A stretch of 64,000 nucleotides of DNA from an uncultured Verrucomicrobiae bacterium. GTDB lineage: Bacteria; Verrucomicrobiota; Verrucomicrobiia; Limisphaerales; UBA11358. This document shows, in pieces, positions 4,908 through 48,246 of this stretch (the stretch's first letter is position 1; every line of letters begins with the position of its first letter). Position numbers and translations under genes: made by a program. Below the pieces are notes generated by a model. It was given only the letters and a program-made list of their open reading frames with translations, searched no databases and had not been told where the DNA came from. Where the stretch lies: positions 4,418 to 68,417 of the forward strand of contig CAVWKA010000003.1 in NCBI GenBank assembly GCA_963755515.1, written 5' to 3'.

Positions 4908-6070
4908 TCGTTTGGTGAATTCGTTGAGACGACCTGCACGGTCATGCCATCGGCGATGGAGTCAGGCGGATTGTCAATGACGCGGTCGTTTATCGTCAAG
5001 CCATCCAGCACTTCGATGTCGCTGCCAAAATCACGTCCGAGCTTTACCGAAAGCAAATGCACGCGGTCATTGCTGTCAAGGACGGCGACCTGGGTACCCT
5101 GGGCGCGAAAGATGATGGCGTTGTCGGAAATCGTCAGCGTTTTGGGGGCGGCGCTTTCGTTGAAGCGGACCTGGGCGTAGCTGCCGGCGAAGAGTTCGTG
5201 GCGGGGGTTTGGCACCTGCAATTCGACCTGCAGGGTGCGGGAGGCGGGGTCCACCGCGCCCGCGATCTGGGTGACGGTGGCTGTAAAAGTGCGTCCGGGC
5301 AGTTCCTGAAAAGTCAATTCAGCCTTTTGGCCGGGGGCAATCCCATAGGCGTATTGTTGCGGGACCTGGACATAAACGCGCAGCGGGTCGGTTTGGGCCA
5401 TGCCAAAAAGTTCCGGGCCGCTGCCGGCGGCGATGAGCTGGCCGATGTCGGTGTTGCGGGCGGTGATGACGCCGTTAAATGGCGCGGTGACGTTATCAAA
5501 ACCTTTCAGGTCCTGGAGGCGCTGGAGATTGGCGCGGGCGGCCTCGACGTTGGCCTGTTGCAAGACGTAATCGGACTGTTTTTCCTGGGCGTCCTGTTCG
5601 CTGACGCTGGCGGATTTGAGGAGTTCCGTCCAGCGATCGGCGGTAATTTTTGCCAGGTTCAGGGCGGCATTGGCCTGGTCCAATTGCGCTTTGGCTTGCG
5701 CGAGTTGTTCGTCCAATTCAGGTGTTTCAATTTGGGCAAGCACCTGGCCATTGGTGACCTGGTTGCCGATGTCCACGAACCAGTTTTTCAGATAGCCGCT
5801 GGCGCGGGCATGGATGGAGGCTTCAATGAACGCCTGAACATCGGCCGGCAAGGGCGTGCCTAAATCCGGCGCGGCGGGGTCCGGCGAAATGACGGTGACG
5901 GTGCGGACGGAATCTTCGCGCGTGTCGGCCAGGAGCTTGCGGTGGGCAAGCCAGCGAGGCACGAAGCCGATGATGAGGCCGATGACGATGAGGCCGACGA
6001 CGATTTCGCCGACGCGCCGCAAACGGATGGGCGGGGGACCGGATGGCGATGAAGAGGGGGTTGGGTTCAT
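4904..6070 (-). CDS. RND efflux periplasmic adaptor (membrane fusion protein, HlyD family)
   Basis: 388 aa with an N-terminal TM helix (VVGLIVIGLIIGFV), a coiled-coil hairpin (ELDEQLAQAKAQLDQANAALNLAK ... VEAARANLQRLQ) and a beta-barrel part. ATGA overlaps at both ends (6067-6070, 4904-4907). Confidence 0.9.
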   Translation of the reverse strand: MNPTPSSSPSGPPPIRLRRVGEIVVGLIVIGLIIGFVPRWLAHRKLLADTREDSVRTVTVISPDPAAPDLGTPLPADVQAFIEASIHARASGYLKNWFVDIGNQVTNGQVLAQIETPELDEQLAQAKAQLDQANAALNLAKITADRWTELLKSASVSEQDAQEKQSDYVLQQANVEAARANLQRLQDLKGFDNVTAPFNGVITARNTDIGQLIAAGSGPELFGMAQTDPLRVYVQVPQQYAYGIAPGQKAELTFQELPGRTFTATVTQIAGAVDPASRTLQVELQVPNPRHELFAGSYAQVRFNESAAPKTLTISDNAIIFRAQGTQVAVLDSNDRVHLLSVKLGRDFGSDIEVLDGLTINDRVIDNPPDSIADGMTVQVVSTNSPNE

Positions 6071-9000: not shown

Positions 9001-9256
9001 AGGAAGTGGACTCGATATGTTCGATGTTGTTGACGGTGACGGTCAACGCGCGCTCGTTGACATAGACGATGCGCTGCTCCATTTCCTTGGGATTAAGTCC
9101 GGTATATTGCCAGATGATGCTGACGACGGGGATGTTGATGGCCGGGAAAATGTCCGTCGGCATCCGGAGCAGAATGAACGGCGTGAGGATCAAGAGCAGC
9201 AACGCGGCCACCACGAACGTGTAGGGCCGGCGCAGAGCTAAAAGGACAATCCACAT
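6067..9256 (-). pseudogene. RND multidrug efflux permease (AcrB/HAE1-type, ~1060 codons), interrupted by one frameshift near 7220
   Basis: ORF 7106..9256 is the N-terminal part and 6067..7347 the C-terminal part. Removing one c from ccc at ~7218-7222 restores FPGVMFYFLPADIVSQTLNFSLPAPYDVQIVG. Multiple TM segments and large periplasmic loops, typical of AcrB. Confidence 0.9.
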
Positions 9257-9328
9257 ATCGTTTTGCGTTTAAACGCCGGAAGGCCGGCGACATTCATCCT
9301 CGACTCAACGTTCTGGCTTGATCGGTAA

Positions 9329-15524: not shown

Positions 15525-18500
15525 ATGAGCCGCCGTTTGAACCGAGATCGTTGGTCCTTTCCAGGATTCAGGGTAACGCTGGCGGTTTTGATTCTGTGTC
15601 TGCTGGCGGCGCGCACCGTTCACGCGGGGGATGATGCCGGGGGGGCAAGCCCTGTCGTGGGCAAGGACTCCAACGGCCATCTGGAGGTGTTCAAATTGGA
15701 CGATGCCGGACAGCTTTGGCATCGCTGGCGAAAAGCATCCGATGGGGCATGGTCGGCGTGGTCCGGGTTGGGCGGTTCCCTTCTGCCGGGGATCGCCATC
15801 GTCCATTCCACGAATGGGGAAATGGAGGTATTTGGCGTGGACCGAACCAACGGGACGCTCGAGGCGATTCGGCAGTTGACAACGAGTCATTTGGATTGGT
15901 CGGCATGGACGAATTTGGGGGGGGCACTGGAGTCACCGGTTGCGGCGGAGGAAAATGCGGATGGACGGGTTGAAGTATTTGCCGTGGATGCGGAGTCACA
16001 TGAAGCGAGGCACCTTTGGCAGGTTACCGGCCAAGGCGGTTGGTCAGCATGGGCGGACTTGGGCGGGGCGCTTCAGCCAGGACTGGTGTCAAAAAAAAAT
16101 AAAGACGGACGATTGGAGGTTTTCGGGATTGCCCTTGGAGGCAATTCGCTGGTTCACTGCTGGCAACTTCGCGCCGACACGACGAACGGTTGGTCTGCGT
16201 GGGCTGATCTCGGCGGGGACATACTTCCCGGGTTTGCCGCGGGGTTGAACGCCGTTGGCCGCATGGAGATTTTTGCCATCAACCGCACGAACAACTCCGT
16301 GACACGGATTTGCCAGACTGGTCCCGGCACCAGCACCGGATGGACGGCATGGGAGGATTTTGGCGGCGAGATGACGTTCGGATTGGCGGTGGGCCAATGC
16401 GGCGACGGACGAATGGAAGTATTCGGGGTGGATGCCGTCAATTCCATGCTGCGGCATCGCTGGGAGTTGTTTGTCAGTGGCGAGGACAAATGGTCGGATT
16501 GGGCGGACACGGGCGAAAAATCCGGTTCGACTCCCGCCGTCGGGGAAAATGAAGACGGCGACCTGGAAGTGTTCGTCACGGATCCGGCGGATTATGGTAT
16601 TATATATCATCGCCGCCAAATCAGTTCGTCGAGTGACTGGCTGGATTGGTCGCGTCTGGGCGAGCCGGTTTTCGATTATGCCTGCCGCGTCTGGCAGGTT
16701 GACGAAGGATTGCCGGACAATCTGGTTTCGGCGATCGCCCAGACAACCGATGGATTCCTGTGGGTGGGAACGCGGGGAGGGTTGGCGAGGTTCGACGGCA
16801 GTAAATTCGTCAACTACAACGCCCAAAACACGGCGGCGCTGAAAAACTCGGTCATTACGGCGCTGTGCGCCGGCAGCGATGGCGGCTTGTGGATTGGCAC
16901 CGATGGGGGCGGTCTCATCCGCTTGAAGGACGGAATTTTTTCGCAGTTTACGATGACGAATGGACTGGCCGGGGATGAAATCGAGGTCATTTATGAAAGC
17001 CGCGACGGAAGTTTGTGGATAGGGACCAACCACGGAATGAGCCGGATGGATCATGGGACCATTCGGATGTACACCACGCATGACGGTTTGCTGTCGGATG
17101 CGGTGAGGTCCATTTACGAAGATCGTGACGGGAATTTATGGATTGCGACCGAGAAAGGCTTGAACCGTCTTCGGGGGGACGGAGCGATGGACGCATTTGT
17201 GATGCCGAACGGCCTGCCGAACGATTCGGTGCGGGTGATCAGCCAGGACCATGGGGGCCGGATCTGGGTTGGCTCAAACGACGGTTTGCTTTGGTATAAC
17301 TGGTATTGGGGAAAATCGTTTTACGCGTACAACACGCACTACGGGTTGTCGGACACTTTTGTGAGCGCGATATGCGACGACGGCGATGGGAATCTTTGGG
17401 TGGGCACCTACAGCGGATTGAATCGTTTTCGTGACGGCTGGTTTTACAATCAACCCGACAATGACGGCGAGCCGTTCGACAAGGTCAACGCGCTTTTTGT
17501 GGACCGCGACGGCAATTTGTGGGTGGGGATCCAAGGAGGGTCTGGCGTGCCTGACCGCCGAGAAATTTTTCACCTATACCAAGCAACAAGGATTGACGCA
17601 CAACAACGTGATGTCCGTTTTGCAGGACGACCGTGACAATATATGGATTGGCACGTGGGGGGGCGGTTTGGATGAATTACAAGGGGAAAAGATCACGGCT
17701 TACACTTCGGCGGTGACGAACGGCCTGTCGCAGGACCTGATACTTTCGCTGTGCGAGGGACGGGATGGCAGCCTATGGGCCGGCGCGGATTTTGACGGTG
17801 GCCTGATGCGGCTGAAGGACGGGCGCATCACGCGCTACACGTGGCGGGACGGCCTGGCGGATTCGGGCTTGCGGGTGCTCCATGAAGGGGCCGGAGGGGC
17901 CCTTTGGATTGGCAGCGACCGCGGGGTGAATTGCATGCAAAATGGAAAAATCATGACAAACGCCGTGACGGCGGCGCTGGCCAATGACAGTGTCCGGGAC
18001 ATTTGCGAGGACAAATCAGGCGGGTTATGGTTCGCCACACAAAATGGCCTGGTTTGCTGGCAGAAGGGACAACTGACCACCTTCACCACCGCAGACGGTC
18101 TTTCCGACAACTCGCTCACCACCCTGTATTTGGGGGAGGAAAACACGCTTTGGATTGGCACCACCGGCGGCGGCCTGAACCGTTACCGAGACGGGCGGTT
18201 CACGGCTTACACCACGAAACAAGGAATGTTCAGCGATGAGATTTCAGGAATTGTGGAAGATCAAGGCTGGCTGTGGATGAGTTGTTCCCGCGGGATTTTC
18301 CGGGTCCGCAAGAGTGATTTGGATGCCTTCGACCTTGGAAAACTCGAGATGATTCCGAGTCTGGTTTATGGCAAGAATGACGGCATGGAGAGCATTCAAT
18401 GCAACAGCCGCGGCCAGCCTTCGGCCTGGAAATCGCAGGACGGCCGGCTTTACTTCGCCACCAGCAAAGGAATGGTGACGGTGGATACAAAGACGGTGGG

Positions 18501-19669
18501 AACCGACGACGAACCGCCATCGGTCTTCATTGAGACGGTGGCGGCGGACCAAAAAGTCATCGCCAGCGGCCGTCTGGAATTGGCCGGGCCAGTCTCGGTC
18601 TTGTTGCGCCGGGATGAGGCGTTGCGCATTGCGGCGGGACATGGCGAACTGAGATTCGAGTATTCGGCCCTCGGGTTCTCGGATCCGGAAAAAGAGCGAT
18701 TTAAATACCGGTTGGAAGGGGTGGACCCGGGGTGGGTGGACGCCGGGGAGCAACGGGTGGCGTATTACAACAATCTATTGCCCGGGAGTTACCGGTTTCA
18801 AGTGACGGCGTGCAATCGCGACGGTGTCTGGAACGAGGCGGGCGCCGGGATGGCCATCCTCTTGTTGCCGCATTACTGGCAAACGGTATGGTTTCACACG
18901 TTTGGGATTTTCCTGGCATTCGTCGGCGTCTGCGGCGGGGCTTTTTACGCGACGCGAAGGAAGATGCAGCGGAAGTTCACCCTGCTGGAACAGCAACACG
19001 CGATTGAAAGGGAGCGCGGGCGGATTGCGAGGGACATGCACGACCAACTGGCGCCGGTTTGACGCAAATTGGATTGCTCGGCGAATTCGCCCGGCGCGAC
19101 GCCGTCCAAAACGCCGACGCGAAGGTTCACGTTCAAAGGATTTGCGACACGGCGCGAGAGTTGGCGCAAACGCTCGATGAAATTGTCTGGATGGTGAATC
19201 CGCGGAACGACCTGCTGAACAAGCTCGGCCTTTACATGGCGGCGTATGCCGAGGGATTTTTTGATGCGACGCCGGTCCGCTCCGGCTCGATATTCCTCCG
19301 GGACTTCCAGCCTATCCGCTCTCGGCGGAGTGCCGGCACAATCTATTTCTGACCGTCAAAGAGGCGCTCAATAACGTCGCCAAACATTCGAAGGCGTCTG
19401 AGGCGCGGCTGGGAATCAAGTTGACGGGGGGCTCAAAAATTCCGGGCCAAAATAATCCGGCGGCTTCCAGCGGGCAGGAGAGCCAATGGCTTGAAATTGA
19501 GATTGAGGACAACGGAATTGGATTTGCAGCGGAGGCCGCGGGGGACGGGCGCAACGGATTGAAAAACATGGGTGAACGCATCAAAGAAATCGGGGGCAGC
19601 CTCGAGTTTTTCAGCCGTCCGGGAAATGGAACCCGAATTTGCATCCGGGTGCCGCTAAAATATTTGTAA
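15525..19669 (+). pseudogene. Large sensor histidine kinase: signal peptide, 7-bladed lectin-like propeller, Reg_prop repeats, Y_Y_Y, TM, HisKA_3 and HATPase_c. Three frame breaks (~17529, ~19041, ~19270).
   Basis: Built from ORFs 15525..17636, 17431..19062, 19059..19352 and 19421..19669. Junctions restore DRDGNLWVG-SKEGLACL, ARDMHDQLGAGLTQIGLL and DATPV-PLRLDIPPGLPAYPLSAECRHNLFLTVKEALNNVAKHS. The Y_Y_Y part is FKYRLEGVDPGWVDAG..YRFQVTACNRDGVWN, and the ATPase part is IEIEDNGIGF..GLKNMGERI. Confidence 0.85.
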
Positions 19670-19773
19670 TTTCCGGTTTATGGTTATAAATTGTGAGTGG
19701 AAATGGAGGAGATTGCATGCGAGCGGCATTTGCGGAGCCACTGGTGAATTCCCGTCAATCTGATTCGGGATTT

Positions 19774-20400
19774 ATGCCAATCACAGTGTCCATCGTGGAA
19801 GACAACCGGCAAGTCCGGGAAAGCCTGGCGGTATTATTGAATGGCGGCGGGAACACGCGCTGCGTCGGCGCGTATTCCAGCGGTGAGGATGCGTTGGCGG
19901 GGGTGGTTCAAAAAAAGCCGGACGTCGTTTTGATGGACATCAACCTTCCCGGCATGTCGGGCATTGAATGTGTGCGCCGGGTGAAAGCGCAATTGCCGAA
20001 AACGCAAATTTTGATGTTTACGATGTATGAAGACGACGAAAAGATTTTCCAATCACTGGTCGCGGGCGCGAGCGGTTATCTCGTCAAGCGCACCTCGCCG
20101 GCGGAATTGCTGAAGGCCATCGAGGAGGTCCATAGCGGGGCTTCGCCGATGTCCGGCAAAATCGCGCGGACGGTCGTCGAATATTTTCAAAAGCTGCGGA
20201 CGGAGATTCCGACACAGACCTATCTCTCGAAACGAGAGGAGGAAATTTTGATTTTGCTGGCCAAGGGTTACCGGTACAAGGAAATTGCCGACGCCCTCGC
20301 CATTGGTTTTGAAACGGTGCGCTCTCACTTGAAGAATATCTACGAAAAATTGCACGTCACGTCGCGGACGGAAGCGGTGGTAAAATACCTTAACAAGTGA
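19774..20400 (+). CDS. NarL/FixJ-family response regulator (REC + LuxR-type HTH)
   Basis: REC elements VSIVEDNRQ..VVLMDINLPGMSG..GYLVK; HTH LSKREEEILILLAKGYRYKEIADALAIGFETVRSHLKNIYEKLHV. ATG 19774 (MPITVSIVED) is preferred over the ORF-track start 19693. Confidence 0.9.
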   Translation: MPITVSIVEDNRQVRESLAVLLNGGGNTRCVGAYSSGEDALAGVVQKKPDVVLMDINLPGMSGIECVRRVKAQLPKTQILMFTMYEDDEKIFQSLVAGASGYLVKRTSPAELLKAIEEVHSGASPMSGKIARTVVEYFQKLRTEIPTQTYLSKREEEILILLAKGYRYKEIADALAIGFETVRSHLKNIYEKLHVTSRTEAVVKYLNK

Positions 20401-20402: not shown

Positions 20403-20430
20403 ACATCCCCCGAAAGGGGGATGTGTTTCC
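20403..20430 (+). terminator. Rho-independent terminator after the response regulator
   Basis: acatccccc-gaaa-gggggatgt is a perfect 9-bp stem (20403-20411 / 20416-20424) followed by gtttcc. It begins 3 nt after the stop codon. Confidence 0.75.
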
Positions 20431-20668
20431 GGTTCGTTTCCCAATCGTCACGCTCTTTTACCCTTAAAGGGGGATTATCGGCGTTCAATGTTCTGTGCGA
20501 GAATGATTGAAAGTAAAGCAATTGTCATTCATGCAAAGAGCATTTTTGTCTCGCGCGGCGGACTGGTTTCCGCTGGTCCCTAGGGCCTGTAAAGCGATCC
20601 GCTGATTTTGTTTCGAACTGTTCATCCCCATAATACCCATACCCCATACCAACCTGACCCGCATCATT

Positions 20669-23600
20669 ATGAAAAAATCCGTCCTGCTGACTGCTGTCGC
20701 CTCTTTAATCTTTGGCGCGGCAATTATTGCAAACGCCCAAACGTATTCCAACGCCGTGATAAGTTTAAATCCGGTGGGATACTGGCCGTTGAACGAAACG
20801 ACTGCGCCGCCGCAACCGATAGACCTCGTGGCCCAAAACCTCGGGAGCTTGGGCGCGGCCGGGCAACGCCTATTACGGCGCGTGGTATCAGCCATCGGGA
20901 ACCACCTGGTACCTCACCAACAACATCGTCCAGGCGCCGGCGGTGACTTATACCAATGATGGCAGCATGGGCATGTTGTGCCAGGGCGCGCCGGGACAAT
21001 ACCTCATCGTTCCGCGCAACACCAACGGCGTCGCCAATTCAAGCATCGCCCTCAATCCCCCGTTCTCCATCGAGGCCTGGGTCAAAATTGGGGCAACCAA
21101 CAGCGCCCTGCGCGATATCGTCAGCCAGGGCGGTTCGGTGAACCTGAATATTGGCGGACCAAACACCAACAATCCCTATTACGGCGGCCTCGGCTCTGGA
21201 TGGGCCGGCGTCGAATTGGGGCAATATCAGGATTATATCTTTTTGCTGACGCAGTCCACCAACGCCGTTGGCAACAAGAACAGCGAACTGGACACTTCCA
21301 AATATAATACATACACGGGTTTTAAAACCGGTGAATGGGTCCATGTCGTGGCAACGTTCGACGGCTCGACGGAAACCATCTGGACCAACGGCGTCCAATG
21401 CGCATCGAAGACCAGTCCGGCCAACGCCATCGGCCAAAAGTATGTGCTGGATCCAACGACTCCGCTGATGATTGCCCGGCGGCAGCGATGTGACGGCAAG
21501 CTATGGCGTGGGCTTCCAGGGAACCATTGACGACGTCGCGATTTATACCAACGTCCTCTCGCAGACCAGCATTGACAACCATTACCAGGCCGCCTACGTC
21601 ACCAACAGCACTTTTCCCAGTTATACCAATGCGGTGCTGGCGGACGACCCGATCCTTTATTACCGTTTGAACGATCCGCAGGTGCAGACGAATGCCGGCT
21701 ATCCGAGCGGCAGTTTTCCTGTGGCCAATAACTATGGCAGCGCGGGCGCGGCCGGGGAGGGTGTTTATCAGCCTGGCACGACGCCGGGTGTGGCCGGCCC
21801 TTCTTACGCCGGCTTTGGCGCAAACAGCAAAGCCGTGGCATTCAACGGTTGGCTCGGCGGCGTGGATGTGGGCGGCGGCAATCTGCCGGCCAGCTTGAAC
21901 CCCACCAACACTTCACCGCTGACCGTCGTGACTTGGTTCCAGTCCGGTCCGGCTGATTCCCCGGGTCGGTTCCAGGAAATGTTGGGCCACGGAGATTCGT
22001 CGTATCGCATGTCGTTGGGACAGGTGGCGGGTGAAAATCATTTTAATCCCGGACCCGGCCCCGAACTGCAATTTACCACCGCAGCCTCCGTCGCGACCAA
22101 TGGTTTCGCTTTTAACGACGGCAACTGGCACATGGAGGCCGGCGTGTCCGATGGAACCAACGAGTATATGTACCTGGACGGCGCGCTGGCCCAGAGCAAT
22201 AACTCGCCCACGGGCATTAAGATTGCAGGCAACACCAATGACCTTCTCATCGGTGGTGACAGTGAATATACCTATGCCAGCTTTGGTTCGGCCAACACGG
22301 TCCGAACCTTCGATGGACAGGTCGCCCAGGTGGCCTTTTGGACCAACGCGCTGTCGGCGTCGCAAATTCAATCGCTGTTTAACGCAGCCGGAGTGCCGCC
22401 GTATATCTGGATGCAACCGGTTTCGCAAACCAACAATGCCGGGGTAAATATAACGATCGCTGCCGGGGTTCGGGGCAGTGCGCCGACCTTCCAATGGTAC
22501 CAAAACGGGGTGGGGCCTGTTTCGGGGCAGACCAGTATGGATACTCAGTTTCACTCCGGCAGTTTTAGGTGACGCAGGCAGCTATTACCTTGTGGCCAGG
22601 GATGCCGCCGGTTCGGTGACGAGTGCCGTCGTCAATCTGGTGCTTTACGGTCCGCCGGTCATCAACGAACAATCCAGCACGCAAATTGAGGTCTTCGCGG
22701 GAGCGAGTCCGGTTTTGAATGTGGAGGCTGGCGGCGCGCAACCGTTGTCCTATCAGTGGACTCTGAACAGCGACCCCATTGCCGGCGCGACCAATTCAAC
22801 CTATGCCGTTGCCAACGTCCAAACCAGCGGTACTTACGGCTGCACGGTGACCAATACTCTCGGCCAGACGCCAATTTCTTCGATTTCGCTCACGGTGCTT
22901 TCAGATCCGACGGCGCCGTATCCGCAGCAGGTTCTCGCCGATGGCCCGATGGACTATTACCGTCTGGATGAATCCAGCGGCACGACCGCATACGATTACG
23001 TCGGAGGCAACAATGCGACTTACACCAACGTCACGCTGGGCGTGCCGGGCTACAACTCGGAAGCCAGTGTCAAGAGCGACCCATCGGAGACAGCGGCTGA
23101 GTTTGGTGATTTTCCGCCGAACGACTACGCCGGGGATGTTCCCTCCTATGTCAATTTTGGCGCGCCCGCCGGCAGCAACGCCGAATTTTCGGTTGAAGCC
23201 TGGTTCACCGAATACCTCTATAGCAGTATCGGTGACGCCATCGTCGCTCTGGGTTACGGCAACGGCGGCGAGCAGTTCGTCCTGGACACCGGCGCGGGCA
23301 CCGCGGGTGACCTCCGGTTCGGGGTCCGCAATGCAGCCGGGACTTTCAGTTCGGCGAGCAGCAGCTATGCGCCGGCGGACGACGGATTGTGGCATCACGT
23401 GGTGGGCGTCTGCGACGAGGCGGGCGGCACCCTTTCTCTGTATATGGACGGAAAGCTGGTTGGGACAGGAACGATCACGGCCAAAAGCGGCTTGTTGGGC
23501 GCGACATCGCCGTTAAGCATCGGCGCCCGCCAGTCGGCGAACAATCACGGGACGAACTACGACGCGCAGTTTTATGGCGCCGTGGACGACGTTTCACTCT

Positions 23601-25428
23601 ATGATTACCCGCTGACCGCGGCACAGGTGGCCAACCACTTTTACGCCTCGGGCATCGCGCCAACCATCACGCAATTGCAGCCGGGGGACCAAATTGCGGC
23701 AAATCAAGGCGGAGGTGCGACCGTCACGGTGGGGGCGACGGGCACCACTCCGTTCACTTATCAGTGGTATGACAACAACAACAATCTGATTTCAGGCGCC
23801 ACCACTTCCAACCTGGATCTTTCCAACCTGCAGACAACCCAGGCCGGGAATTACACGGCGACGGTGGGCAACACCTATGGTTCGGCCAGCACCAACTTTT
23901 ATCTCTCGGTTGGCTCCGGGCCGCCGGTCATTTCGGTGGATTTGTCGCCGACGAACCTGACGGCATACGCCGGCACCATGGAGACCTACTCAATCCACGT
24001 GGGCGGCAGCGGGGCTGGGCTGGCCTACCAATGGTATCGTGACGGAGGGGCCATTGCCAGCGCAACAGCCTCATCCTATACGTTTGCGGTCCTTCAAGGC
24101 ACCAATACTTATTACTGCGCGGTTACCAACGATGACAGCGCGGGCGTGCCCACCGACAGCAGCACCGGCACGGTGATCGGGGTTGTCCAGCCGTCGCTGA
24201 ATCCGCTGTCCTTCGGGTCGAGGCTCAAGATTACTTTCAGCGGTTATGATCGCACTGAGACACTGCAGGATTTCCCCGCCCTGGTGAATCTGGGTCCGAC
24301 CAACCTGTCGGGATTCTCCTATTCGCAGTTCGCCTCGCCCACCGGCGCCGACCTCCGCTTTACGGACGCCACCGGATCGAACGAGATTCCATACGAAATT
24401 GATGAATGGAACCCGAGCGGGACTACGCCGGTTTGGGTGCAGGTTCCGGCCTTGTCCCAGACCAACAATTTCATCTGGGCCTACTGGGGCAATCCGGCCG
24501 ACACGACTCCGCCCGCTTACACGACCAACGGAGCAGTCTGGGTGCCGCCGGCCTTCCAGTCACTGCCTCCTTATCTCGTGGTGTATCATTTGGAACAGAG
24601 CGCGTTCCCTTATTTTGACAGCACGCTCAATTATCCGTCAACGAACGGCGTCGCGCCTTCCAGGCTCCAGGCATCGTGGGACAGGCTGCGTCGTTCGACG
24701 GCACCGGCCCTTATATTGACGCCGGTTCGGTGAATCTGGGCAACACCTTCACCTTGTCCGCTTGGGTGAATATCTCTACCTCCGAGCCATCCAATATCCA
24801 GGGGGTTTGGGTCAACGGCGTCGGCGGTTACGATTCCGACGAGATAGCGCTGTTTGTAAACGAATACGAAACCGCAGACGGTGCGCTCCTTTTGGGGACG
24901 GGTGACGGCACCGTCGGTCAACAACCGCAGACGGGGACTGGCCTCGTCACGGCTGGCCAGTGGCATTTGGTGACGGCTGCGGTAAATCGGACTGCTAGCG
25001 GCACTCAAGGCACCACTGAATTGTATGTGGACGGAACGCTCCAAGGGTCCGGCGCTACCGTTAATGACTTCCCGACCAACAATGACATGAACCTCGGCCG
25101 CTTCATCGGCGGCCCCTACGATATGGATGGCCTCATTGATGAAGCGCGCATCCATTCGGGAGTGGATGACGCAAACTGGACATGGGCGAGCTACATGACG
25201 GTGGCTCAAAACTCGTTGTTTGAAACCTATTCGGCCGTGGGTTCCTCGGCCGTTACATTGACCATTCAGCGGTCAGGCAACCGGGTCATCCTGGCCTGGC
25301 CGCAGGGCACCTTGCAATCGGCCACGCAGGTAACCGGCCCTTATAACAACGTGCCTGACGCGACGTCGCCTTACACCAATGCGGTGTCCGGGACGCAACA
25401 ACAATTCTATCGCGTCCAGGTCCAGTAA
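20669..25428 (+). pseudogene. Giant secreted LamG/ConA-like lectin-fold protein with Ig-like domains, a DUF2341 domain and a C-terminal FYRV module (~1585 codons). Four frame breaks (~20860, ~21474, ~22535, ~24665).
   Basis: Built from ORFs 20669..20959 (signal peptide MKKSVLLTAVASLIFGAAIIANA), 20943..21530, 21472..22572, 22478..24733 and 24676..25428. Laminin_G_3-type stretches (FSIEAWVK.., FSVEAWF.., FTLSAWVN.., DDVAIY/DDVSLY/DEARIH). Ig-like repeats (..AGSYYLVARDAAGSVTS..). DUF2341 part (LKITFSGYDRTETLQDFPALV..RFTDATGSNEIPYEIDEWN..IWAYWGNP). Confidence 0.8.
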
Positions 25429-25445
25429 ACATCGTGATCACAGTG

Positions 25446-25477
25446 TTGGCGGGGATGCGACGCAGCGTCCCCGCCAA
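25446..25477 (+). other. Intergenic hairpin (10-bp perfect stem, 12-nt loop) between the LamG gene and the GH27 gene
   Basis: ttggcgggga-tgcgacgcagcg-tccccgccaa seen directly. No T-run follows, so it is not a classical terminator. Confidence 0.5.
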
Positions 25478-25484
25478 CCAGGCA

Positions 25485-27824
25485 AAAATGCAAAATAACG
25501 CCAGCAATCTTAAAATGAGCACCCAATGTCGGCCGGTCATGGTCGCATCGGTGATCGTGATGTTCATTTCACTCCGCAGCGCCCGGGGTTTGACGAATGG
25601 GCTGGCCCTGACTCCGCCGATGGGCTGGAACAGTTACAACCATTTCGCCTGCAACATTGATGAAAATATCATCGAGAGCGAGGCGGATGCCATGTGTACC
25701 AACGGCATGGAGGCTGCGGGTTATAGCTTTATCAACATTGACGACTGTTGGCAGACCAACCGTGACGCCAATGGTGTCCTTGTGGCGGACCCTGCCAAAT
25801 TCCCTCACGGCATCAAGGCGCTTGCCGATTATGTCCATTCCAAAGGTCTCAAGCTCGGCATTTATTCAGACCACGGAACTGTTACCTGCCAGGGCAAACC
25901 AGGCAGCTACGGCTACGAATACGTGGACGCGCTGACTTTCGCCTTGTGGGGCGTGGACTATTTGAAATACGACAACTGCAATCTGCCTCCCGGCGACAGC
26001 ACAAACGCCGATGACGCCAAAATGGCGGCCGCTTTGGGCCAAACCGGACGGCCAATCGTCTTCAGCCTTTGTGACTGGTCGTATGCTTCCTGGATGCCGG
26101 ATGACGGCAATTTATGGCGGACGACCTCTGACATTCAGGACACGTTTTCCAGTTTTGTCGCCAATCTGGGGGCGGACAGCCCAATGGCATTTGTGGCCGG
26201 CCCGGAACGGTGGAATGACCCGGACATGCTGGAAGTTGGCAATGGCGGGATGACGGCCACGCAGGATCAATCAGAGTTCAGCCTTTGGTGCATCGTCGGC
26301 GCGCCATTGATTGCCGGAAACGATCTGACCACGATGTCCGCGCAAACACTTGCCATATTAACCAATTCGGAAGTCATCGCGGTGGACCAGGACCCGGTGG
26401 GCGAGCAGGGGATTCAGGTGGCCGGTTCTTCTTTAAGGCAGGTTTGGTGCAAACCCCTGGGAACCAATTTCAACACCAAAGCAGTCGCCTTGTTCAATCT
26501 GACCAGCAGCGCAACCAGTATCAGCGTAAATTGGACCAACCTTGGATTGCAAGCCGGGCCGGCGACGGTGCGAGACTTGTGGGCGCACGCGGATTTGGGG
26601 ACATTCACGAATAGTTTCACCACCAACGTGCCTGGGGACGGAGCCGTAATGCTGAAGGTTGTCGGTACGGCCCCGGTGTTTCCCATCCCGGGCACCAACT
26701 ATCTGACAGAACTCCAGCCGGCTTATGCCTATACCGGTTCGGGAACGATTACCGCCAACAAAAGCATCGGCGGAAATGCCATCACGCTTAATGGCGTCAC
26801 CTACACAAACGGCATAGGCGTCAACTCCTATTCCGGTCTGGAATATTGCCTCGGCGGAATGGCCGCGCGTTTCCAGGCGGACATCGGGGTGGACGACGAG
26901 GTGGGCAGCAGTGGTTCCGTGGTGTTTCAGGTATTCGCCGATGGCCTCAAGATTTATGACAGTGGCGTTATGAAGGGCGGCGCGCCGCACCAGACCATCA
27001 ACGTGGACGTTACCGGCGTGAACCGGTTGACGCTTGGCGTGAACGACGCCGATGACGGAACCACCGATGACCACGCTGACTGGGCCGGACCGATGGTCAT
27101 CGTTTCAAATGCGGCGCCGGTGGCGCCTCTGCCGCCGGTTGGCCTGGCCGCCGCCGGGGGACAGCCGATTGCGCTGACGTGGCAAGCCACGCCGGGGGCC
27201 GCGGCTTACAATGTTTATCGTTCCACCTCCGGCAACGGCGCATTCACGAACATTGCCAACACGGTTTTACCAGATTACATGGACAGCAACGTGGTTGCCG
27301 GCACGACCTGCGATTATGCGGTTTCCAGCGTCGGAATTGGCGGAGAAAGCCCGGCTTCAACCGTCGCCAGCGCCACAGCCTGTCTGCCGCCGGCTGTGCC
27401 AACGGGTTTGACAGTAACCATTAGTGGCGCGCAAGCCATCCTCATTTGGAATCCCGTTCCGGGCGCCGCCACTTACACTGTTTTGCGAGCCACCAAGTCC
27501 ACGGCTTATACTCCCATCGCCACCGGCCTCGAGACTACGGCTTATACGGATACGAATCGGGCAACGGGCGCGATTTATTACTACGCCGTGGCCGCCGGCA
27601 ATGGTTGCAGCCAGAGTGCTTTTTCCCCCTTTGCGTTCGGCTCAACGAACGTCACCCTCGGCATCCGGTATTCCGGCAACAGCGTCATCCTGGCCTGGCC
27701 GCTGGGAACCTTGCAATCTGCCAGCCAACCGGGCGGCCCGTATAGTGATCTGACCGGCGCGACTATGTTTTACACGAATCCGCCATCCGGAGCCGAACAA
27801 TTTTACCGTGTCCGGGTTCAATAA
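25485..27824 (+). CDS. GH27 alpha-galactosidase (or alpha-N-acetylgalactosaminidase) with NPCBM-like domain, two Fn3-like domains and a C-terminal FYRV module
   Basis: Melibiase core [55 protein letters not shown]-like part [35 protein letters not shown]. Start 25485 or 25512 (signal peptide [18 protein letters not shown]); the ORF-track start 25434 would include the hairpin. Confidence 0.85.
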
Positions 27825-27876
27825 AATAAAAAATAAAAAATCCGGCGAAATTAACGTTCCACCGGTCAAAGATAGA

Positions 27877-28776
27877 ATGAAAAGCAAAATCAGAAGAATT
27901 GAAGAGAATGTCCGTCACGCCCGGAATGGCGGGAACGGAAAGGCTGCATATTCAGGGTTCACGTTAATCGAGTTGCTGGTGGTGATCTCCATCATCGCGA
28001 TTCTGGCGGCGATGTTGTTGCCGGCGCTGGCAGCGGCGAAACGCCGGGCACAGTCAATTCAGTGCATGAGCAATACCAAACAACTGGCGACGGCCTGGAT
28101 CATGTATGCCGGGGACAATAACGGCAATTTGGTCATCAATCATGCCGGCCAAAGCGCCAGTGATACGACTCCAAGCTGGGTGACCGGGTGGCTGGATTAC
28201 AGCGGCAATCCCGCGGACACAAACATTCAATTCCTGATTAGTCCCCAGTATTGCATGTTAGCCATCTACCTGAGGGACCCGGCCGTCTATAAGTGTCCGG
28301 CGGACATGAGCTGCCAATATGGTTTGAAGGGCCTTCCCCGGGTGCGCACTTATTCGATGAACGCGGCCCTTGGGCCGGATGCAATATCCATCCAGAACAG
28401 TTGGTTGCCGGTGACGGCCTATAAGGTTTATCTCAAAGAAAATGAAATGACAGTTCCCGACCCGTCAGACATGTGGGTATTTCTGGATGAAGACGTGGAC
28501 AGCATCAACGACGGCTCCTTTGCCGTCAAAATGCCTGCAACGGCCAAGGCTACGGAATGGGTTGACATGCCGGGAAAGGCCCATGGGAATTCCTGCGGCT
28601 TCTCTTTTGCGGATGGCCATTCGGAGATTCATAAATGGCTTGAACCCGGAAATATCGAAGCTCCCAATTACAGCACTTTGATCAAAACCGGCATCTTTGA
28701 ATTGGGCGACCCGGACATTCTTTGGATGGCCAAACACACCTCGACGTTTTCCGATGGCGAAGGGCTTCCTTATTAG
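27877..28776 (+). CDS. Prepilin-type N-terminal cleavage/methylation protein with H-X9-DG motif (DUF1559-type pseudopilin-like protein)
   Basis: [45 protein letters not shown], with [13 protein letters not shown] (H-X9-DG) near the C-terminus. Start at ATG 27877 (MKSKIRR). Confidence 0.85.
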
Positions 28777-28814
28777 TTGAAAACCAATCGTATTTCCGAG
28801 GGCAAAGGACGCTG

Positions 28815-31649
28815 ATGTTGCAAAAATCTGACGGACGTTATTATTTCATGATGGCTTTGCGCCGATTCAGGTCTGGCCAATTAAAGACCATTGCCGGAAT
28901 GGCGCTCATCTTGTGGGCGGCGATTTCCATTTCAAGCGCCGCCAATCTGGACGACTCGCAGGTGGACAGTTACAATCTCCGCATCGGCACGGAGACGTTT
29001 GCGGGCACGTATCAATTTACCACCAACACCCTGCTGGTTGAAACCGCCCAGGCCATCACCAATATGGGCAGCGACACCATCAAACTTTACATGGGCACGG
29101 ACACTTCCTACCAAAGCGGGGTCACGCTCACTTCCAATATCACGAATTTGTTGACGCTCGCGCGCGATGAGCCGAGCTATCATCAGGTCCTCGACATGCC
29201 CTTCCGGCATTTTATCATGTGGGAATATCCGTTTGCAAATTCGGACAGTTGGTGGGCCAACGGCTACAATGCGACGAAGGGCGCCGCGGACTACCAGGAA
29301 ATGTATGCTCTGACCAAATACCTTCTCACCAACTACAACAATTCCGGAAAAACGTTTTATCTCGGGCATTGGGAAGGCGACGGCTATCTCGACGTGGATG
29401 GCTGGTCAACGAATCCCCCGGCCATTACGATTCAGGGGATGATTGGCTGGCTCAACAACCGCCAGAAGGCCGTGGACGACGCCAAAGCGGCCACCGTATA
29501 TACCAATGTCTATGTATATAACTATGCGGAGTGCAATCGAGTCCAGGATGCCATGAAAAATGGCACCAACAATAACGAGCGTGTCATCAATTGCGTTGTT
29601 CCCTATGTTACCAACCTGGATTATTTGTCCTACTCCTCCTATGACTCGCAGAATCTAAGCGCGTCGGCCCTCTACAACACCCTGAATTATATGCAATCCA
29701 TGCTGCCGACCAACAAGGCGTCGGTGGTACCGGGCGAGCGCATGTGGATCGGCGAATATGGTTGGGGTACGGAATCCACCGCCGCGCAGGAGCCGCTGAT
29801 CCGGTCCTATATTCAGCGGTTGTTGGGCTGGAATTACAACGGCCAGTGCCTTCCGTTTATTCTCTACTGGGAAATGTATAGCAACTATAATCCCGGCGGG
29901 GGCACCAACTATTGCCTGATCAACTATTTGGACCAGGAAGCACCGGCATGGTATCTCCACAATTATTTTTACAACGATGCCCGGCTGGCGGTTGCGCAAT
30001 TCAGGGAGACGGACGGGCGGCTGCCTACCGACACGGAGTTCACGTCGCTGATGTCGCCGTTGTTGAACCAACCGTTGTCCGCGCCGGTGGCCCTCACGGT
30101 GGCGAACGCCGGCGCCGTCCTCGTCACCAATACCGTTGCCACCCTTTCGGGGACGCTTACCCAGGGGATTTACGGTGAAAGTGAAGCAGGAGTTTGGGTC
30201 TATTATGGATTGCAGGACGGCGGGACAACGGTCGGCAATTGGCAGGCTGGACGTTATGTGGGCATGAACACCAATTTCAATCCCCACACCTTCTCTGTCA
30301 CGCTCAACAACCTCGTGGGCGGCACCAATTATTTCTATCGCTTCTATGCCGCCAACTCCACGACCAATGCATGGGCGCCGGCATCATCGCAATTCAGCAC
30401 GACGACGATCGCCCCTTCGGGCTACGGTTCGAAGATGAAGATTTTTTTTTCGGGATACAACCGCAACGAGACCCTGACGGATTTTCCGATGCTGGTGGAA
30501 TTGAGCGCCAATCTGCCCGGCTTTTCCTACCGGCAATTTGCATCGCCCTCCGGCGGCGATTTGCGTTTCACCGACTCGAGCGGATTGTTGCCGATTCCGT
30601 ATGAGATTGATGAGTGGAACACCAACGGCGTTTCCAGCGTTTGGGTCAACGTGCCGTCACTCTCCCCCACGAACGATTTTGTCTGGGCCTATTGGGGCAA
30701 CCCGGCGGCGACCAACCCTCCGGATTACACGACCAACGGCGCGGCCTGGCCGGGTTTCGATTTGGTTTGGCACTTGAGAGAGACCGGGTTTCCGTATGCT
30801 GATAGCGCGCTCCAATGGCCGGCGCTGTCCGGCGTCGCCCCGGTACGCACCACCGGAATTGTCGGTTACGGTCAAGCCTTTAACGGGTCCTCGGATTATT
30901 TGAATGCCGGGAGCGTCAACACGCTGGGCAACGCCTTCACCCTGTCGGCGTGGGTGAACGTCTCGCCCGCGAACAGCAACATTCAGGTCGTATGGGCCAA
31001 TCAACAGGGCGGCTATGGTTCGCCCGGTTTTGCCCTGTTTGTTAATTCTTACAACACGACCAATGGCGCCCTTTTATTGGACACCGGCGATGGTGTCAAT
31101 GGCTCGGAATTATCCACCGCGGCCGGGGCCGTGAGCTTCGGCCAATGGCATTTGATTTCCGCGGCGATTAATCGCGCGGATAGCGCCCTGTCCCTCTATG
31201 TGGATGGCGCGTCTGTGCCGATTGTCAGTGGCGATCCAGTGGTATCTGACTTCGCCAACACCTCCGATTTGAATTTCGGCCGCTTCACCAACAATTATGA
31301 CTATTTTACCGGCACGATGGAGGAGGCGCGCATCCAGTCGGGCATTGAAGATTCAAATTGGGTTTGGGCAAGCTGGGAGACGGTCGTCTCCAACTCCGAT
31401 TTCGAAAATTACGCCGCGGCGACGCAACAATCGCCGGTGCTGGCCATTGGCATGGGCGGCGGCAATGCCATGACTTTCAACTGGCCGGGCAGCGGCGTCG
31501 GTTTTTCCCTTTACACGGCAACCAACCTGACACCGCCCGTCGCCTGGACGCCCGCCAACAGCCAGCCGACGCTCGTCAGCAATCAATGGCAGGTGACGCT
31601 GCCGACGGACAACAGCAGCTCCCGATATTATCGCCTCGAATCGCAATGA
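28815..31649 (+). CDS. Secreted multidomain protein: uncharacterised TIM-barrel-like putative glycoside hydrolase domain, Fn3-like domain, DUF2341, LamG and a C-terminal YYRL module
   Basis: Signal/anchor IAGMALILWAAISISSAA. The N-terminal ~400 aa carry candidate catalytic motifs FYLGHWEGDG and MWIGEYGWG. The DUF2341/LamG cassette is paralogous to the one in the LamG giant (MKIFFSGYNRNETLTDFPMLV..RFTDSSGLLPIPYEIDEWN..VWAYWGNP; FTLSAWVNVS..MEEARIQ). Start 28815 or 28848. Confidence 0.6.
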   Translation: MLQKSDGRYYFMMALRRFRSGQLKTIAGMALILWAAISISSAANLDDSQVDSYNLRIGTETFAGTYQFTTNTLLVETAQAITNMGSDTIKLYMGTDTSYQSGVTLTSNITNLLTLARDEPSYHQVLDMPFRHFIMWEYPFANSDSWWANGYNATKGAADYQEMYALTKYLLTNYNNSGKTFYLGHWEGDGYLDVDGWSTNPPAITIQGMIGWLNNRQKAVDDAKAATVYTNVYVYNYAECNRVQDAMKNGTNNNERVINCVVPYVTNLDYLSYSSYDSQNLSASALYNTLNYMQSMLPTNKASVVPGERMWIGEYGWGTESTAAQEPLIRSYIQRLLGWNYNGQCLPFILYWEMYSNYNPGGGTNYCLINYLDQEAPAWYLHNYFYNDARLAVAQFRETDGRLPTDTEFTSLMSPLLNQPLSAPVALTVANAGAVLVTNTVATLSGTLTQGIYGESEAGVWVYYGLQDGGTTVGNWQAGRYVGMNTNFNPHTFSVTLNNLVGGTNYFYRFYAANSTTNAWAPASSQFSTTTIAPSGYGSKMKIFFSGYNRNETLTDFPMLVELSANLPGFSYRQFASPSGGDLRFTDSSGLLPIPYEIDEWNTNGVSSVWVNVPSLSPTNDFVWAYWGNPAATNPPDYTTNGAAWPGFDLVWHLRETGFPYADSALQWPALSGVAPVRTTGIVGYGQAFNGSSDYLNAGSVNTLGNAFTLSAWVNVSPANSNIQVVWANQQGGYGSPGFALFVNSYNTTNGALLLDTGDGVNGSELSTAAGAVSFGQWHLISAAINRADSALSLYVDGASVPIVSGDPVVSDFANTSDLNFGRFTNNYDYFTGTMEEARIQSGIEDSNWVWASWETVVSNSDFENYAAATQQSPVLAIGMGGGNAMTFNWPGSGVGFSLYTATNLTPPVAWTPANSQPTLVSNQWQVTLPTDNSSSRYYRLESQ

Positions 31650-33298
31650 GGCCACCGCGCGCGTCTTCGAGTCCAAGGGTTTGGCGATGGTTTCCTTATT
31701 GTTTAATCGCGGTTTTGCTGGCGCTGGCCGGAGGCTCGCGTGTTTTCACGGCGGCTCCGCGGGAAGATGACAGCGCCTTGTGGCGTCCGCGTCTGGCCAC
31801 GCCCGCCATCGTGGCGCTGGACAGCGCGGCGGACCGGCAGTTCACGGCGGAAGTCAAGGCGTCGCCCGGCGCAGGCGATTGGAGCGCCACCATTGCCAAT
31901 GATTTAAAAAGCTGGCCCTGTAAAATCGTGTCGGCGACCTACTCAAAAATCAACAACGGAACTGAACCGGGCTGGCAGGTCAAGATCAGCGTACCGGCCA
32001 ACGCCTCGCCCGAACTTTTCACTTTGACCGTGGCCTGCGACGAGGGCGCCAGCGTGCAACCGCAGGCGGTGAGCGTCATCGAAAATTTCGCCACGGACTT
32101 TTATATCCTGCACATCACCGACGAGCAGATCGTGAATCAATATCATACGGATCCATCCGGGCAGTATTATCACATGGTGGGGACGTGGGAGGAAATGAAG
32201 TGGATGCAGGGGCCGGTAAATCTCATCAACCCGCGCTTTGTGGTGATTACGGGGGACCAGATTGATTTCAACGGCGCGCTGGACGGCTGGAACAATTGGG
32301 CGAACTGGGGTTTTGTGCCGCACGGCAAAAAGATCTTTTCATTCCAGGAAACCACCAATCTCGAACTTCGCTTGAGCGAGATGTACAAGGATTGCCATAA
32401 AGGATACCGCGTTGCCTATGTGGAGACACCGGGCAATCACGACGTCACACCGCCGGGAAAATTGCTGACCGGCTCGACGATTGACTGGCATCCAATCTCG
32501 GTCCGTCTATACGAACAGGAATTCGGCCAGCGCGACTGGTCCTTCCGCATGGGTGATTTTTACGTGCTCATGCACGATTGGAGCGATGCCGCGCTCCGGG
32601 AATGGGCCGCGCGGGATTACGCGGCCGCCCTGAACGATCCGGGCATAACGTTTCGTCTCATTGGCCAGCATTATTACGCGAAATGGGGCGGCGCGCCGGA
32701 TGGAAATCATCCGTTTACGCCGGACCAATGTGATTTGATGCTGATTGGCCACGGGCACGTGACGAAAACCCTCCAGACATCGCCTTATTACATCTATGAA
32801 GAACGGGCGGCCTTCGTTTACGGCACGGCGGGATTCTTTAATTTTCGCCGCACCGCCGATGGCTGGTCCTGTGACCAAACGGGTGCGCCGCGCGATGAGC
32901 ATAAGGATGTCTGGGGGCTGTTCACCGCCAATGGCGTGACTAAAAAAGTCCGCGCCGATTGCCCGGACACCATGAATATCACAAACGATTCCGTCACCAT
33001 CACCAATGATTTGCCGGAGAATTTTTACGACGGCCGCGTGCGGTTTGTCCTGAACAGAGGGACCTACCCAACTGTCGAAAATGGAACGGTTTTGGCCGAA
33101 TACAATTGCGTCAAAAATACGCGTACGGCCATCCTCGTTCGGGTGAATATCCCCGCCAGCGGTTCCATCACGGTTCGAATTCCGGATGAATCCAACGCAA
33201 CGGCGGGGACGGCGCGGCTGGTTGGTCCGCAACAGAAACTCGCGGCAACGATGTCGCGGCGCGGCGCCGAGTCATCAACTAATAATCGCTCCACATAA
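31646..33298 (+). CDS. Calcineurin-like metallophosphoesterase
   Basis: Motifs VITGDQIDFNG (GDxxD), ETPGNHDV (GNHD) and LIGHGHV (GHxH). Motif I is atypical (HITDEQ rather than DxH). Signal peptide RWFPYCLIAVLLALAGG. ATG 31646 overlaps the upstream stop (ATGA). Confidence 0.75.
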   Translation: MRPPRASSSPRVWRWFPYCLIAVLLALAGGSRVFTAAPREDDSALWRPRLATPAIVALDSAADRQFTAEVKASPGAGDWSATIANDLKSWPCKIVSATYSKINNGTEPGWQVKISVPANASPELFTLTVACDEGASVQPQAVSVIENFATDFYILHITDEQIVNQYHTDPSGQYYHMVGTWEEMKWMQGPVNLINPRFVVITGDQIDFNGALDGWNNWANWGFVPHGKKIFSFQETTNLELRLSEMYKDCHKGYRVAYVETPGNHDVTPPGKLLTGSTIDWHPISVRLYEQEFGQRDWSFRMGDFYVLMHDWSDAALREWAARDYAAALNDPGITFRLIGQHYYAKWGGAPDGNHPFTPDQCDLMLIGHGHVTKTLQTSPYYIYEERAAFVYGTAGFFNFRRTADGWSCDQTGAPRDEHKDVWGLFTANGVTKKVRADCPDTMNITNDSVTITNDLPENFYDGRVRFVLNRGTYPTVENGTVLAEYNCVKNTRTAILVRVNIPASGSITVRIPDESNATAGTARLVGPQQKLAATMSRRGAESSTNNRST

Positions 33299-33305
33299 CC
33301 TTAAA

Positions 33306-47926: not shown

Positions 47927-48246
47927 GTCAAAAAATTGAGCCGCGAGCAGGGATTGGACACCCATGTAAAATCAGAATTGTCGTATGGCCAAAGCCCAAA
48001 CGCGAAGCGTTCGAGCTTTACTTCCTCGAAGGCTTTTGAGCCGGAAGAAATCGCGATGTTCATTGGACAGCCGTCCAATTCTTTGCGGGAACTTATCGGC
48101 CTCCTTAAACGGCGGCTCCGGCCTAAATCTTTTCTAATTCTGGTTCCCGTCGCCATCACTGCCCCGAATTGACAGTCTTTTTGACCTGCGGATAAATAGT
48201 CATTTTACTTGTCATTAAAATTCGATTATAATGTGCAACTCTGGTT

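Follow-up and report, generated by a model that had tools for sequence, protein, structure and literature searches.

The PLL-type beta-propellers characterised to date are all soluble lectins from the insect pathogen Photorhabdus, in which PLL, PLL2-PLL5 and PHL (5c9o, 6rfz, 6t96, 8q82, 8q83 and 5mxe; Pfam family PF26607) are stand-alone proteins of ~370 residues, built of seven W-motif blades of ~47 amino acids (aa) and occurring as monomers, dimers or tetramers. In the glycan-sensing hybrid two-component systems (HTCS) of Bacteroides thetaiotaomicron (BT4663, 4a2l/4a2m; 3v9f; 3va6/3ott), Reg_prop repeats are followed by a Y_Y_Y domain and a transmembrane helix, the HisKA-type kinase, receiver and AraC-type DNA-binding domain reside in the same chain, and the sensor genes adjoin glycoside hydrolase (GH) genes. 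Here we describe a gene in which a PLL-family propeller forms the N-terminal domain of a 1381-aa membrane-bound sensor histidine kinase, in front of a Reg_prop/Y_Y_Y module, with the gene for a NarL/LuxR-type response regulator next to it. It lies in a 64,000-nucleotide (nt) stretch of DNA from an uncultured Verrucomicrobiae bacterium (assembly GCA_963755515.1, contig CAVWKA010000003.1, positions 4,418 to 68,417 of the forward strand; hereafter the window, to which all coordinates refer [Table 1]). Neither the sensor class nor the lectin family is new in itself; what appears to be new is their fusion.

The seven blades of the propeller are 47-50 aa long, share a mean pairwise identity of 34% (range 21-47%) and follow the motif DG(R/H/E/D)(L/M/V)E(V/I)F ... 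(W/R/C)(Q/R/E) ... W(S/T/L)xW ... (L)GG. A preliminary description of the window, made from the sequence alone, had placed seven repeats of ~48 aa at aa 46-383 (nt 15660-16673), close to the aa 43-384 delineated here, and the two repeats that it quoted as examples are blades 3 and 4, verbatim. When PDB sequences were searched with the propeller using phmmer, only PLL-family lectins of Photorhabdus were matched, with PLL2 as the best hit (6rfz, E = 1.2e-64) and seven other PLL-family chains, including 8q82 and 8q83 (PLL4 and PLL5), at E = 2.6e-53 to 6.4e-46 (PLL, 2.9e-52; PHL, 1.9e-51; PLL3, 6.4e-46). With E values of this order, the repeats are far beyond chance. The alignment with the Photorhabdus lectins is in register, blade for blade, at 30-34% identity. 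An AlphaFold2 model of the propeller, built on 57 homologs, reached a predicted local distance difference test score (pLDDT) of 93.4 and a predicted template-modelling score (pTM) of 0.92, and the 22 best matches of this model in a Foldseek search of the PDB were all PLL-family structures (PLL, PLL2-5 and PHL), with template-modelling scores of 0.87-0.93 (TMq 0.87-0.89, TMt 0.89-0.93).

PF26607 (Beta-prop_PLL) is present in the precomputed annotations of all database homologs of the propeller. Pfam and NCBIfam scans of aa 1-395 assigned no family, the Pfam version scanned being one without PF26607, and at E <= 10 the Pfam scan gave nothing beyond noise and a sub-threshold FG-GAP_3 match (E = 8.6e-5). 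Taken together, the PDB sequence search, the fold search and the precomputed annotations identify the repeats as a true seven-bladed propeller of the PLL family. The lectin-propeller fold that had been suggested on the basis of the repeats is thus borne out by structure prediction, and so is the PLL half of the family likeness that had been named; the tectonin and DUF346 half is not, as neither hidden Markov model (PF19193 and PF03984, respectively) matched aa 1-395 in the Pfam scan at E <= 10. Both families were seen only on some more distant homologs of the propeller. CV39L of Chromobacterium violaceum (6gxs) and the fungal fucose lectins AAL, AFL and AOL are likewise propeller lectins with inter-blade sugar sites; they are, however, not the closest family, being only 13-20% identical to the kinase propeller, with a Foldseek TMq of ~0.8 for CV39L and 0.5-0.56 for the fungal proteins, which are six-bladed.

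As the preliminary description had proposed, the propeller stands N-terminal to a Reg_prop/Y_Y_Y module in a sensor kinase, which Pfam shows to be of the HisKA_3 type, and a NarL/LuxR-type regulator adjoins it. The protein begins with a hydrophobic leader (Kyte-Doolittle value of 1.97 over aa 11-29), and the sequence after it is probably exported to the periplasm. The Reg_prop region has the size expected of two seven-bladed propellers. A phmmer search of the PDB with aa 385-1153, which span the Reg_prop, Y_Y_Y and transmembrane segments, retrieved 3v9f (E = 2.1e-61), 4a2l (BT4663, 3.2e-57) and 3va6/3ott (7.9e-33); judged by these matches, this part of the kinase is homologous to the glycan-sensing periplasmic domains of the Bacteroides HTCS. 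The two differ at either end of the chain. The solved Bacteroides sensors are without the extra N-terminal propeller, and in place of their HisKA-type kinase, receiver and AraC-type domain the protein described here has a HisKA_3 domain and ends with HATPase_c, the receiver and a GerE-type helix-turn-helix being encoded on a separate protein. The arrangement is best explained as that of a classical two-component kinase from a soil lineage of Verrucomicrobiia, with the adjacent NarL/LuxR-type regulator as its partner.

The fusion was next traced in other genomes. Scanning one genome per species yielded 334 stretches encoding PLL-like relatives, of which the best 80 loci were kept, and 13 of these 80 (L001-L012 and L045) matched the whole kinase. 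In 12 of the 13, the kinase is encoded by one uninterrupted open reading frame (ORF) of ~1340-1400 aa, which is colinear with aa 1-1381 of the window protein and 44-78% identical to it (44-61% in the 11 other than L001, the closest relative); in the thirteenth, the ortholog runs off the contig end. An ortholog of the regulator (47-81% identity) follows directly 3' of the kinase in 10 of the 13 loci; the contigs of L003 and L004 end too early to show it, and L009 has none directly downstream. The kinase and regulator pair is also kept in two further loci, L081 and L082. The 13 orthologous loci are mostly labelled, as deposited, as metagenome-assembled genomes of Verrucomicrobiia. Two, L005 and L010, bear the label Candidatus Acidoferrum and a third, L006, the label Bifidobacteriaceae, with a kinase and regulator typical of the Verrucomicrobiia clade; mis-binning or lateral transfer could account for these labels.

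The passage from blade 7 into the first Reg_prop blade (QIS...DWLDW...Y..R.W...GLP.N.V.AI.QT.DG.LWVGT) ranks among the best-conserved stretches of the kinase. Its pattern, Q-I-S-x-x-x-D-W-L-D-W ... Y-x-x-R-x-W-x-x-(D/E)-(D/E/G)-G-L-P, is common to the 12 orthologs and recurs in the database fragments P0001, P0004, P0007, P0010, P0013, P0031 and P0032. Over five pairs of genes, the ratio of nonsynonymous to synonymous substitution rates (dN/dS) was 0.13-0.22 for the propeller, compared with 0.11-0.18 elsewhere in the protein. We conclude that the fusion is real and subject to purifying selection. An assembly chimera, which the preliminary description had named among the findings that would undo its proposal, is ruled out by the 12 intact single-frame orthologs and the contig-truncated one, all of which have the same highly conserved junction.

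Among the 1.84 billion representatives of a protein library clustered at 50% identity, the propeller matched 5,526 at E <= 1e-3 and 483 at E <= 1e-30. The library contains four full-length clusters of the fusion at the 50% identity level; among its best 150 matches, three (P0121, P0122 and P0132) have the full architecture, next to several fragments. P0250 (874 aa) combines the PLL propeller with Reg_prop, HisKA_3 and HATPase_c, gave no Y_Y_Y match, and may be a shorter natural variant. In P0005 (369 aa, from a 1.7-kb contig), five PLL blades are joined directly to HATPase_c; this chimeric-looking protein is probably a mis-assembly or a deletion. Most other members of the family are fused to peptidoglycan-active enzymes, with M23 (PF01551), CHAP (PF05257), amidase (PF01510, PF01520), GH25 lysozyme (PF01183), DUF1906 (PF08924) and phage tail tip lysozyme domains as partners. 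These proteins, which come mostly from Actinomycetota (e.g. the Streptomyces 'peptidase M23'), resemble the kinase propeller in carrying PF26607 at 31-40% identity and the polar-site consensus described below, but their partner domains degrade the cell wall rather than signal and the propeller usually stands C-terminal to the enzyme domain. Since most family members carry such partners, the kinase fusion is a rare use of a widespread domain, restricted to one lineage. Database entries for the fusion are annotated only as hypothetical or 'propeller domain-containing' protein. Literature searches turned up no paper on the propeller-kinase fusion and none specific to verrucomicrobial Y_Y_Y kinases, in keeping with the earlier remark that no characterised example was known.

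To assess whether the propeller has kept the sugar pockets of its relatives, we relied on the PHL structure paper, which gives the residues of both pocket types (PMC5584973); PHL residues 33-364 were rebuilt from the alignments and their numbering was verified against the residues named in that paper. To the hydrophobic site, whose ligands are fucose and O-methyl sugars, blade n contributes its GG/V backbone, and blade n+1 a Thr and two Trp, the first in LWHxWQ and the second in WSxW (Thr194, Trp199 and Trp214 in PHL; PMC5584973). In the polar site, blade n supplies the Arg and Glu in DGRLEVF and the second Trp in WHxWQ, while the Gln in WQ and the first Trp in WSxW come from blade n+1 (Arg186, Glu188, Trp202, Gln251 and Trp259 in PHL; PMC5584973); it holds galactose in PHL (PMC5584973) and alpha-methyl-fucoside in PLL3 and PLL5 (PMC12203525).

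At the position equivalent to PHL Trp199, blades 1-7 of the window protein read W, E, R, V, T, R and Y, and the hydrophobic pocket survives at most once, with Asp replacing Thr. Among the 12 full-length orthologs, no blade has a constant residue here, and the Thr is mostly replaced too. Judging from these residues, the PLL-type hydrophobic pocket for fucose and O-methyl sugars is lost. The polar site presents another picture. Its residue pattern, R, E, W from one blade and Q, W from the next, is intact at sites 3P, 4P and 6P of the window protein; site 1P reads H, E, W and Q, W, with His in place of Arg; and sites 2P, 5P and 7P are destroyed. Of the Trp-lined fucose/glycan pocket invoked in the preliminary description, the hydrophobic form is not conserved, its stacking Trp being found in one of seven blades; the residues of a polar-type pocket are intact at three of seven interfaces and nearly so at a fourth.

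Much the same subset of sites is retained across the clade. In the 13 sequences comprising the window protein and the 12 full-length orthologs, the stacking Trp of the polar site is kept by all 13 in blade 1, by 10 in blade 3, by 10 in blade 4 and by 11 in blade 6 (the other two having Phe), and by none in blades 2, 5 and 7. Complete polar sites number 11/13 for 6P, 8/13 for 3P, 6/13 for 1P and 6/13 for 4P, and the Gln that blade 7 contributes to site 6P proved invariant upon direct inspection of the motif. In the alignment of the 57-sequence family, the polar-site residues are consensus in all blades and the hydrophobic-site Trp is not, because of which the polar pocket looks like an ancestral, general feature of the PLL family and the fucose pocket like a speciality of the Photorhabdus proteins.

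On balance, we lean towards a reading in which the propeller is a low-affinity, multivalent carbohydrate-binding input or accessory module of an HTCS-like periplasmic sensor. The leader would export the sensor, leaving the propeller in the periplasm at the distal end of the molecule, where it would bind carbohydrate weakly and multivalently through the retained pockets 3P, 4P and 6P and the near-intact 1P, with no part for the hydrophobic fucose/O-methyl-sugar pocket. Since the junction to the first Reg_prop blade is so strongly conserved, the geometry between the two domains is presumably fixed, and ligand binding may be fed through it into the Reg_prop/Y_Y_Y sensor; a scissor-like transmembrane movement has been proposed for sensors of the BT4663 type (PMC8534201). 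In turn, the sensor would govern the phosphorylation state of the regulator, which would then act on neighbouring genes encoding glycoside hydrolases and large secreted proteins of the LamG/Ig or PATR kind.

Several observations weigh against this reading. The hydrophobic pocket (Thr and two Trp) to which the PLL family owes its known specificity is, by its residues, lost in the window protein and its orthologs alike, four of the seven polar sites have defects in the window protein, and not even the best ones are constant across orthologs. Conservation of the polar-site residues may be partly structural, the Arg and Glu of DGRLEVF and the Trp of WQ and WSxW being core residues of the repeat as well. 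To our knowledge, sugar-binding data within the PLL family are confined to the Photorhabdus members. The polar pocket of PHL takes only a monosaccharide, with sub-millimolar affinity, and the authors of that study doubted that galactose was its natural ligand (PMC5584973). In Bacteroides, Reg_prop/Y_Y_Y alone suffices as a glycan sensor, and the extra propeller therefore need not be a ligand site. As regards the genes under control, a terminator-like hairpin separates the regulator from the downstream genes, and no glycoside hydrolase occurs among the sampled neighbours of five distant orthologs, these neighbours including oxidoreductases, HEAT-repeat proteins and PATR/Ig proteins; the link between kinase and hydrolases is drawn from adjacency.

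A bolder version of the proposal can be put forward tentatively. With its pockets at the fixed interfaces 1P, 3P, 4P and 6P, a multivalent propeller might gauge a periplasmic oligosaccharide by its spacing or degree of polymerisation and gate Reg_prop/Y_Y_Y through a rigid junction, so that a lectin would speak directly to a kinase. This is possible rather than probable; if true, the kinase would have a ligand-recognition step for which two-component systems offer no described precedent.

Binding might also be directed at the cell's own envelope. The propeller would then recognise peptidoglycan or another wall polymer and tether or position the sensor at the sacculus, or report on the status of the wall, instead of detecting an imported nutrient glycan. 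The prevalence of peptidoglycan-active partners in the family accords with this, as does the position of the propeller, which in primary sequence lies farther from the inner membrane than any other part of the sensor. So does an ORF directly upstream of the kinase ortholog in L004 (L004:1-2397), in which an S13 DD-peptidase-like region (SxxK, SGLSHSDR and KTG motifs) is fused to a PLL-like propeller of its own; from these motifs, it is a second PLL-domain protein of that locus, tied to peptidoglycan metabolism. The characterised PLL members, however, bind fucose, galactose, glucose and O-methylated sugars (PMC6943638, PMC5584973, PMC12203525), peptidoglycan is not known as a ligand of any member of the family, and three orthologs lie in glycoside-hydrolase loci rather than among genes for wall maintenance. 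We consider binding to the envelope unlikely.

We likewise judge it improbable that the propeller has ceased to be a lectin and has taken on a role in structure or protein interaction (e.g. as a platform for dimerisation, as a spacer or as a docking site for a partner protein in the periplasm), all ligand sensing being left to Reg_prop/Y_Y_Y. The loss of the hydrophobic pocket in nearly all blades and the destruction of polar sites 2P, 5P and 7P throughout the clade would suit such a role. A histidine kinase must dimerise, and the Photorhabdus PLLs dimerise or tetramerise via propeller loops and can accommodate Met side chains and peptides in their hydrophobic sites (PMC6943638, PMC5584973); in Bacteroides, moreover, the HTCS sensor module binds glycans by itself (PMC8534201). 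What speaks against it is that the polar residues are kept blade-specifically (in 1, 3, 4 and 6, never in 2, 5 and 7) down to 44% identity, because a constraint on the fold alone would be expected to act on all blades alike, and that the dN/dS of the propeller is as low as that of the rest of the protein.

The window copy of the kinase gene is broken by three 1-nt indels, on which the preliminary description had been silent. They were called against L001 (contig CAWCRR010000010.1), which is colinear with the window over 9.3 kb at 75% nt identity. The propeller region lies upstream of all three and is uninterrupted. Once corrected, the kinase aligns end to end with the single-frame ORF of L001 (aa 1-1381, 78% identity, 3 gap positions) and has no in-frame stops, and dN/dS relative to L001 is 0.14 in the propeller and 0.13 in the rest of the protein. 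Two other genes of the window are similarly affected by single-base indels: the AcrB gene (6070-9268, minus strand) is broken into two frames, and the LamG/Ig gene downstream of the regulator, which is a single frame in L001, into four. Breaks of this kind across the three genes point to uncorrected consensus errors of the assembly. Given that the events are of 1 nt, that other genes of the window are affected alike, that stops are absent and that dN/dS is low, the three kinase indels are most likely assembly errors and not signs of gene decay; a very recent pseudogene is considered unlikely. Thus, although three frameshifts fall within 4.1 kb and P0005 illustrates how PLL blades can end up joined to HATPase_c, a dead gene or a chimera of a lectin gene and a kinase gene is highly improbable, its chimera half being largely refuted, in view of the 12 independent assemblies with uninterrupted ORFs and the same junction, of the single-base breaks shared with the AcrB and LamG genes and of a dN/dS against L001 of 0.13 on either side of the indels.

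Upstream of the kinase, the window encodes unrelated functions: resistance-nodulation-division (RND) efflux, a TetR protein, an Opp-type ATP-binding cassette (ABC) transporter, a membrane protein and an Asp/Asn hydroxylase. Downstream, the hairpin CCCCCGAA(A/C)GGGGG after the regulator stop is conserved across five loci (window 20403-20475, L001, L002, L006 and L007), together with two blocks 3' of it, GTTTGTTTCC(C)GAT(T)GT(C)AC and AAAGGGGATTA; hairpin and blocks are candidate terminator and operator/promoter elements for the LamG gene. That gene is syntenic 3' of the regulator in L001, L002, L006 and L007, two of which (L001 and L006) have the N_methyl gene in synteny as well; all four contigs end before the positions of the hydrolases. 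The orthologs in L081 and L082 sit among GH2, GH59 and GH31 genes and genes for giant PATR/Fn3_assoc proteins. The preliminary description had proposed a 25-kb glycan locus switched on by the kinase. A glycan-related locus of 20-25 kb does lie directly downstream, and its control by the kinase is a reasonable inference, weakened by the hairpin, by the restriction of LamG synteny to the four closest orthologs and by the want of glycoside hydrolases among the sampled neighbours of the distant ones. A clade-wide link of the kinase to glycoside hydrolases was found only in part, when synteny, L081/L082 and the distant orthologs are considered.

Elsewhere, another Reg_prop/Y_Y_Y/HisKA_3 kinase (62501-64000, minus strand; 35% identity to the first) is cut off by the end of the window, its N-terminus lying beyond. 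It lies ~2 kb from two GH78 alpha-L-rhamnosidase genes (53781-60373, minus strand), with one unassigned ORF between, and may form a second glycan-sensing unit with them. At 48232-51398 (plus strand), the gene for a KaiC-like double P-loop ATPase, apparently frameshifted too, precedes that for a hybrid histidine kinase with HisKA, HATPase_c and receiver domains.

Table 1. Features of the PLL-propeller kinase gene and of the locus downstream of it, in window coordinates.
Feature	Position (nt)	Strand	Basis or remarks
Sensor histidine kinase gene	15525..19669	+	1381 aa once indels are corrected; four reading frames in the window
Signal peptide or signal anchor (predicted), N-terminal	15525..15626	+	aa 1-34: basic n-region RRLNRDR, hydrophobic core VTLAVLILCLLAA, then VHA|GD
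PLL-family seven-bladed beta-propeller	15651..16676	+	aa 43-384; blade bounds, phmmer, AlphaFold2, Foldseek, PF26607
Blades 1-7	15651-15791, 15792-15938, 15939-16082, 16083-16232, 16233-16382, 16383-16532, 16533-16676	+	
Conserved junction, blade 7 / first Reg_prop blade	16635..16715	+	DWLDWSRLGEPVFDYACRVWQVDEGLP
Reg_prop repeat region	16701..18645	+	~650 aa (aa 393-1040); Pfam Reg_prop E = 1.3e-41, 8.1e-21; includes indel 1
Indel 1, one extra base in G run	17527..17529	+	TGGGTGGGGATCC here, TGGGT-CGGTTCC in L001
Y_Y_Y domain	18676..18840	+	PF07495 E = 1.6e-15, aa 416-470 of ORF 17431-19062
Transmembrane helix (predicted)	18883..18951	+	TVWFHTFGIFLAFVGVCGGAFYA, aa 1120-1142, then RRKMQRK; sequence; between Y_Y_Y and HisKA_3
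HisKA_3 dimerisation/phosphoacceptor domain	19012..19202	+	RIARDMHDQLG...; PF07730 E = 5.6e-9, corrected sequence; includes indel 2
Indel 2, one base missing	about 19050	+	Comparison with L001
Indel 3, one base missing	about 19280	+	Comparison with L001
HATPase_c	about 19343-19660	+	PF02518 E = 3.5e-9, corrected sequence; 3' of indel 3
NarL/LuxR-type response regulator (Response_reg + GerE)	19693..20400	+	Pfam E = 2.6e-26, 9.8e-17
Terminator-like hairpin just 3' of regulator stop	20403..20424	+	CCCCCGAAAGGGGG; conserved in the four closest orthologs
Same-strand downstream locus	20669..41405	+	Pfam
LamG/Ig/DUF2341 secreted protein	20669-25425	+	~1,580 aa, frameshifted; Pfam
GH27 + NPCBM	25359-27821	+	Pfam
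N_methyl protein	27754-28773	+	Pfam
DUF2341 + LamG	28701-31646	+	Pfam
ORF without assigned family	between the DUF2341 + LamG gene and 33147	+	Pfam
Lactonase-type seven-bladed propeller + phosphoesterase (phospholipase C/acid phosphatase family), one ORF	33147-35873	+	Pfam
GH2	35782-38850	+	Pfam
GH31	38760-41405	+	Pfam

The PLL family is large (5,526 clusters at the 50% identity level), and in one lineage its domain has become part of a transmembrane signalling protein of a type that governs polysaccharide use. Should the propeller bind no sugar, it would be a lectin fold reused as a structural element. If it does, the kinase would provide a clean natural example of a lectin as kinase input, and would extend the sensing model of the Bacteroides HTCS to soil Verrucomicrobia. 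The fixed subset of kept pockets would then offer a simple system in which to address the ligand of the poorly understood polar site.

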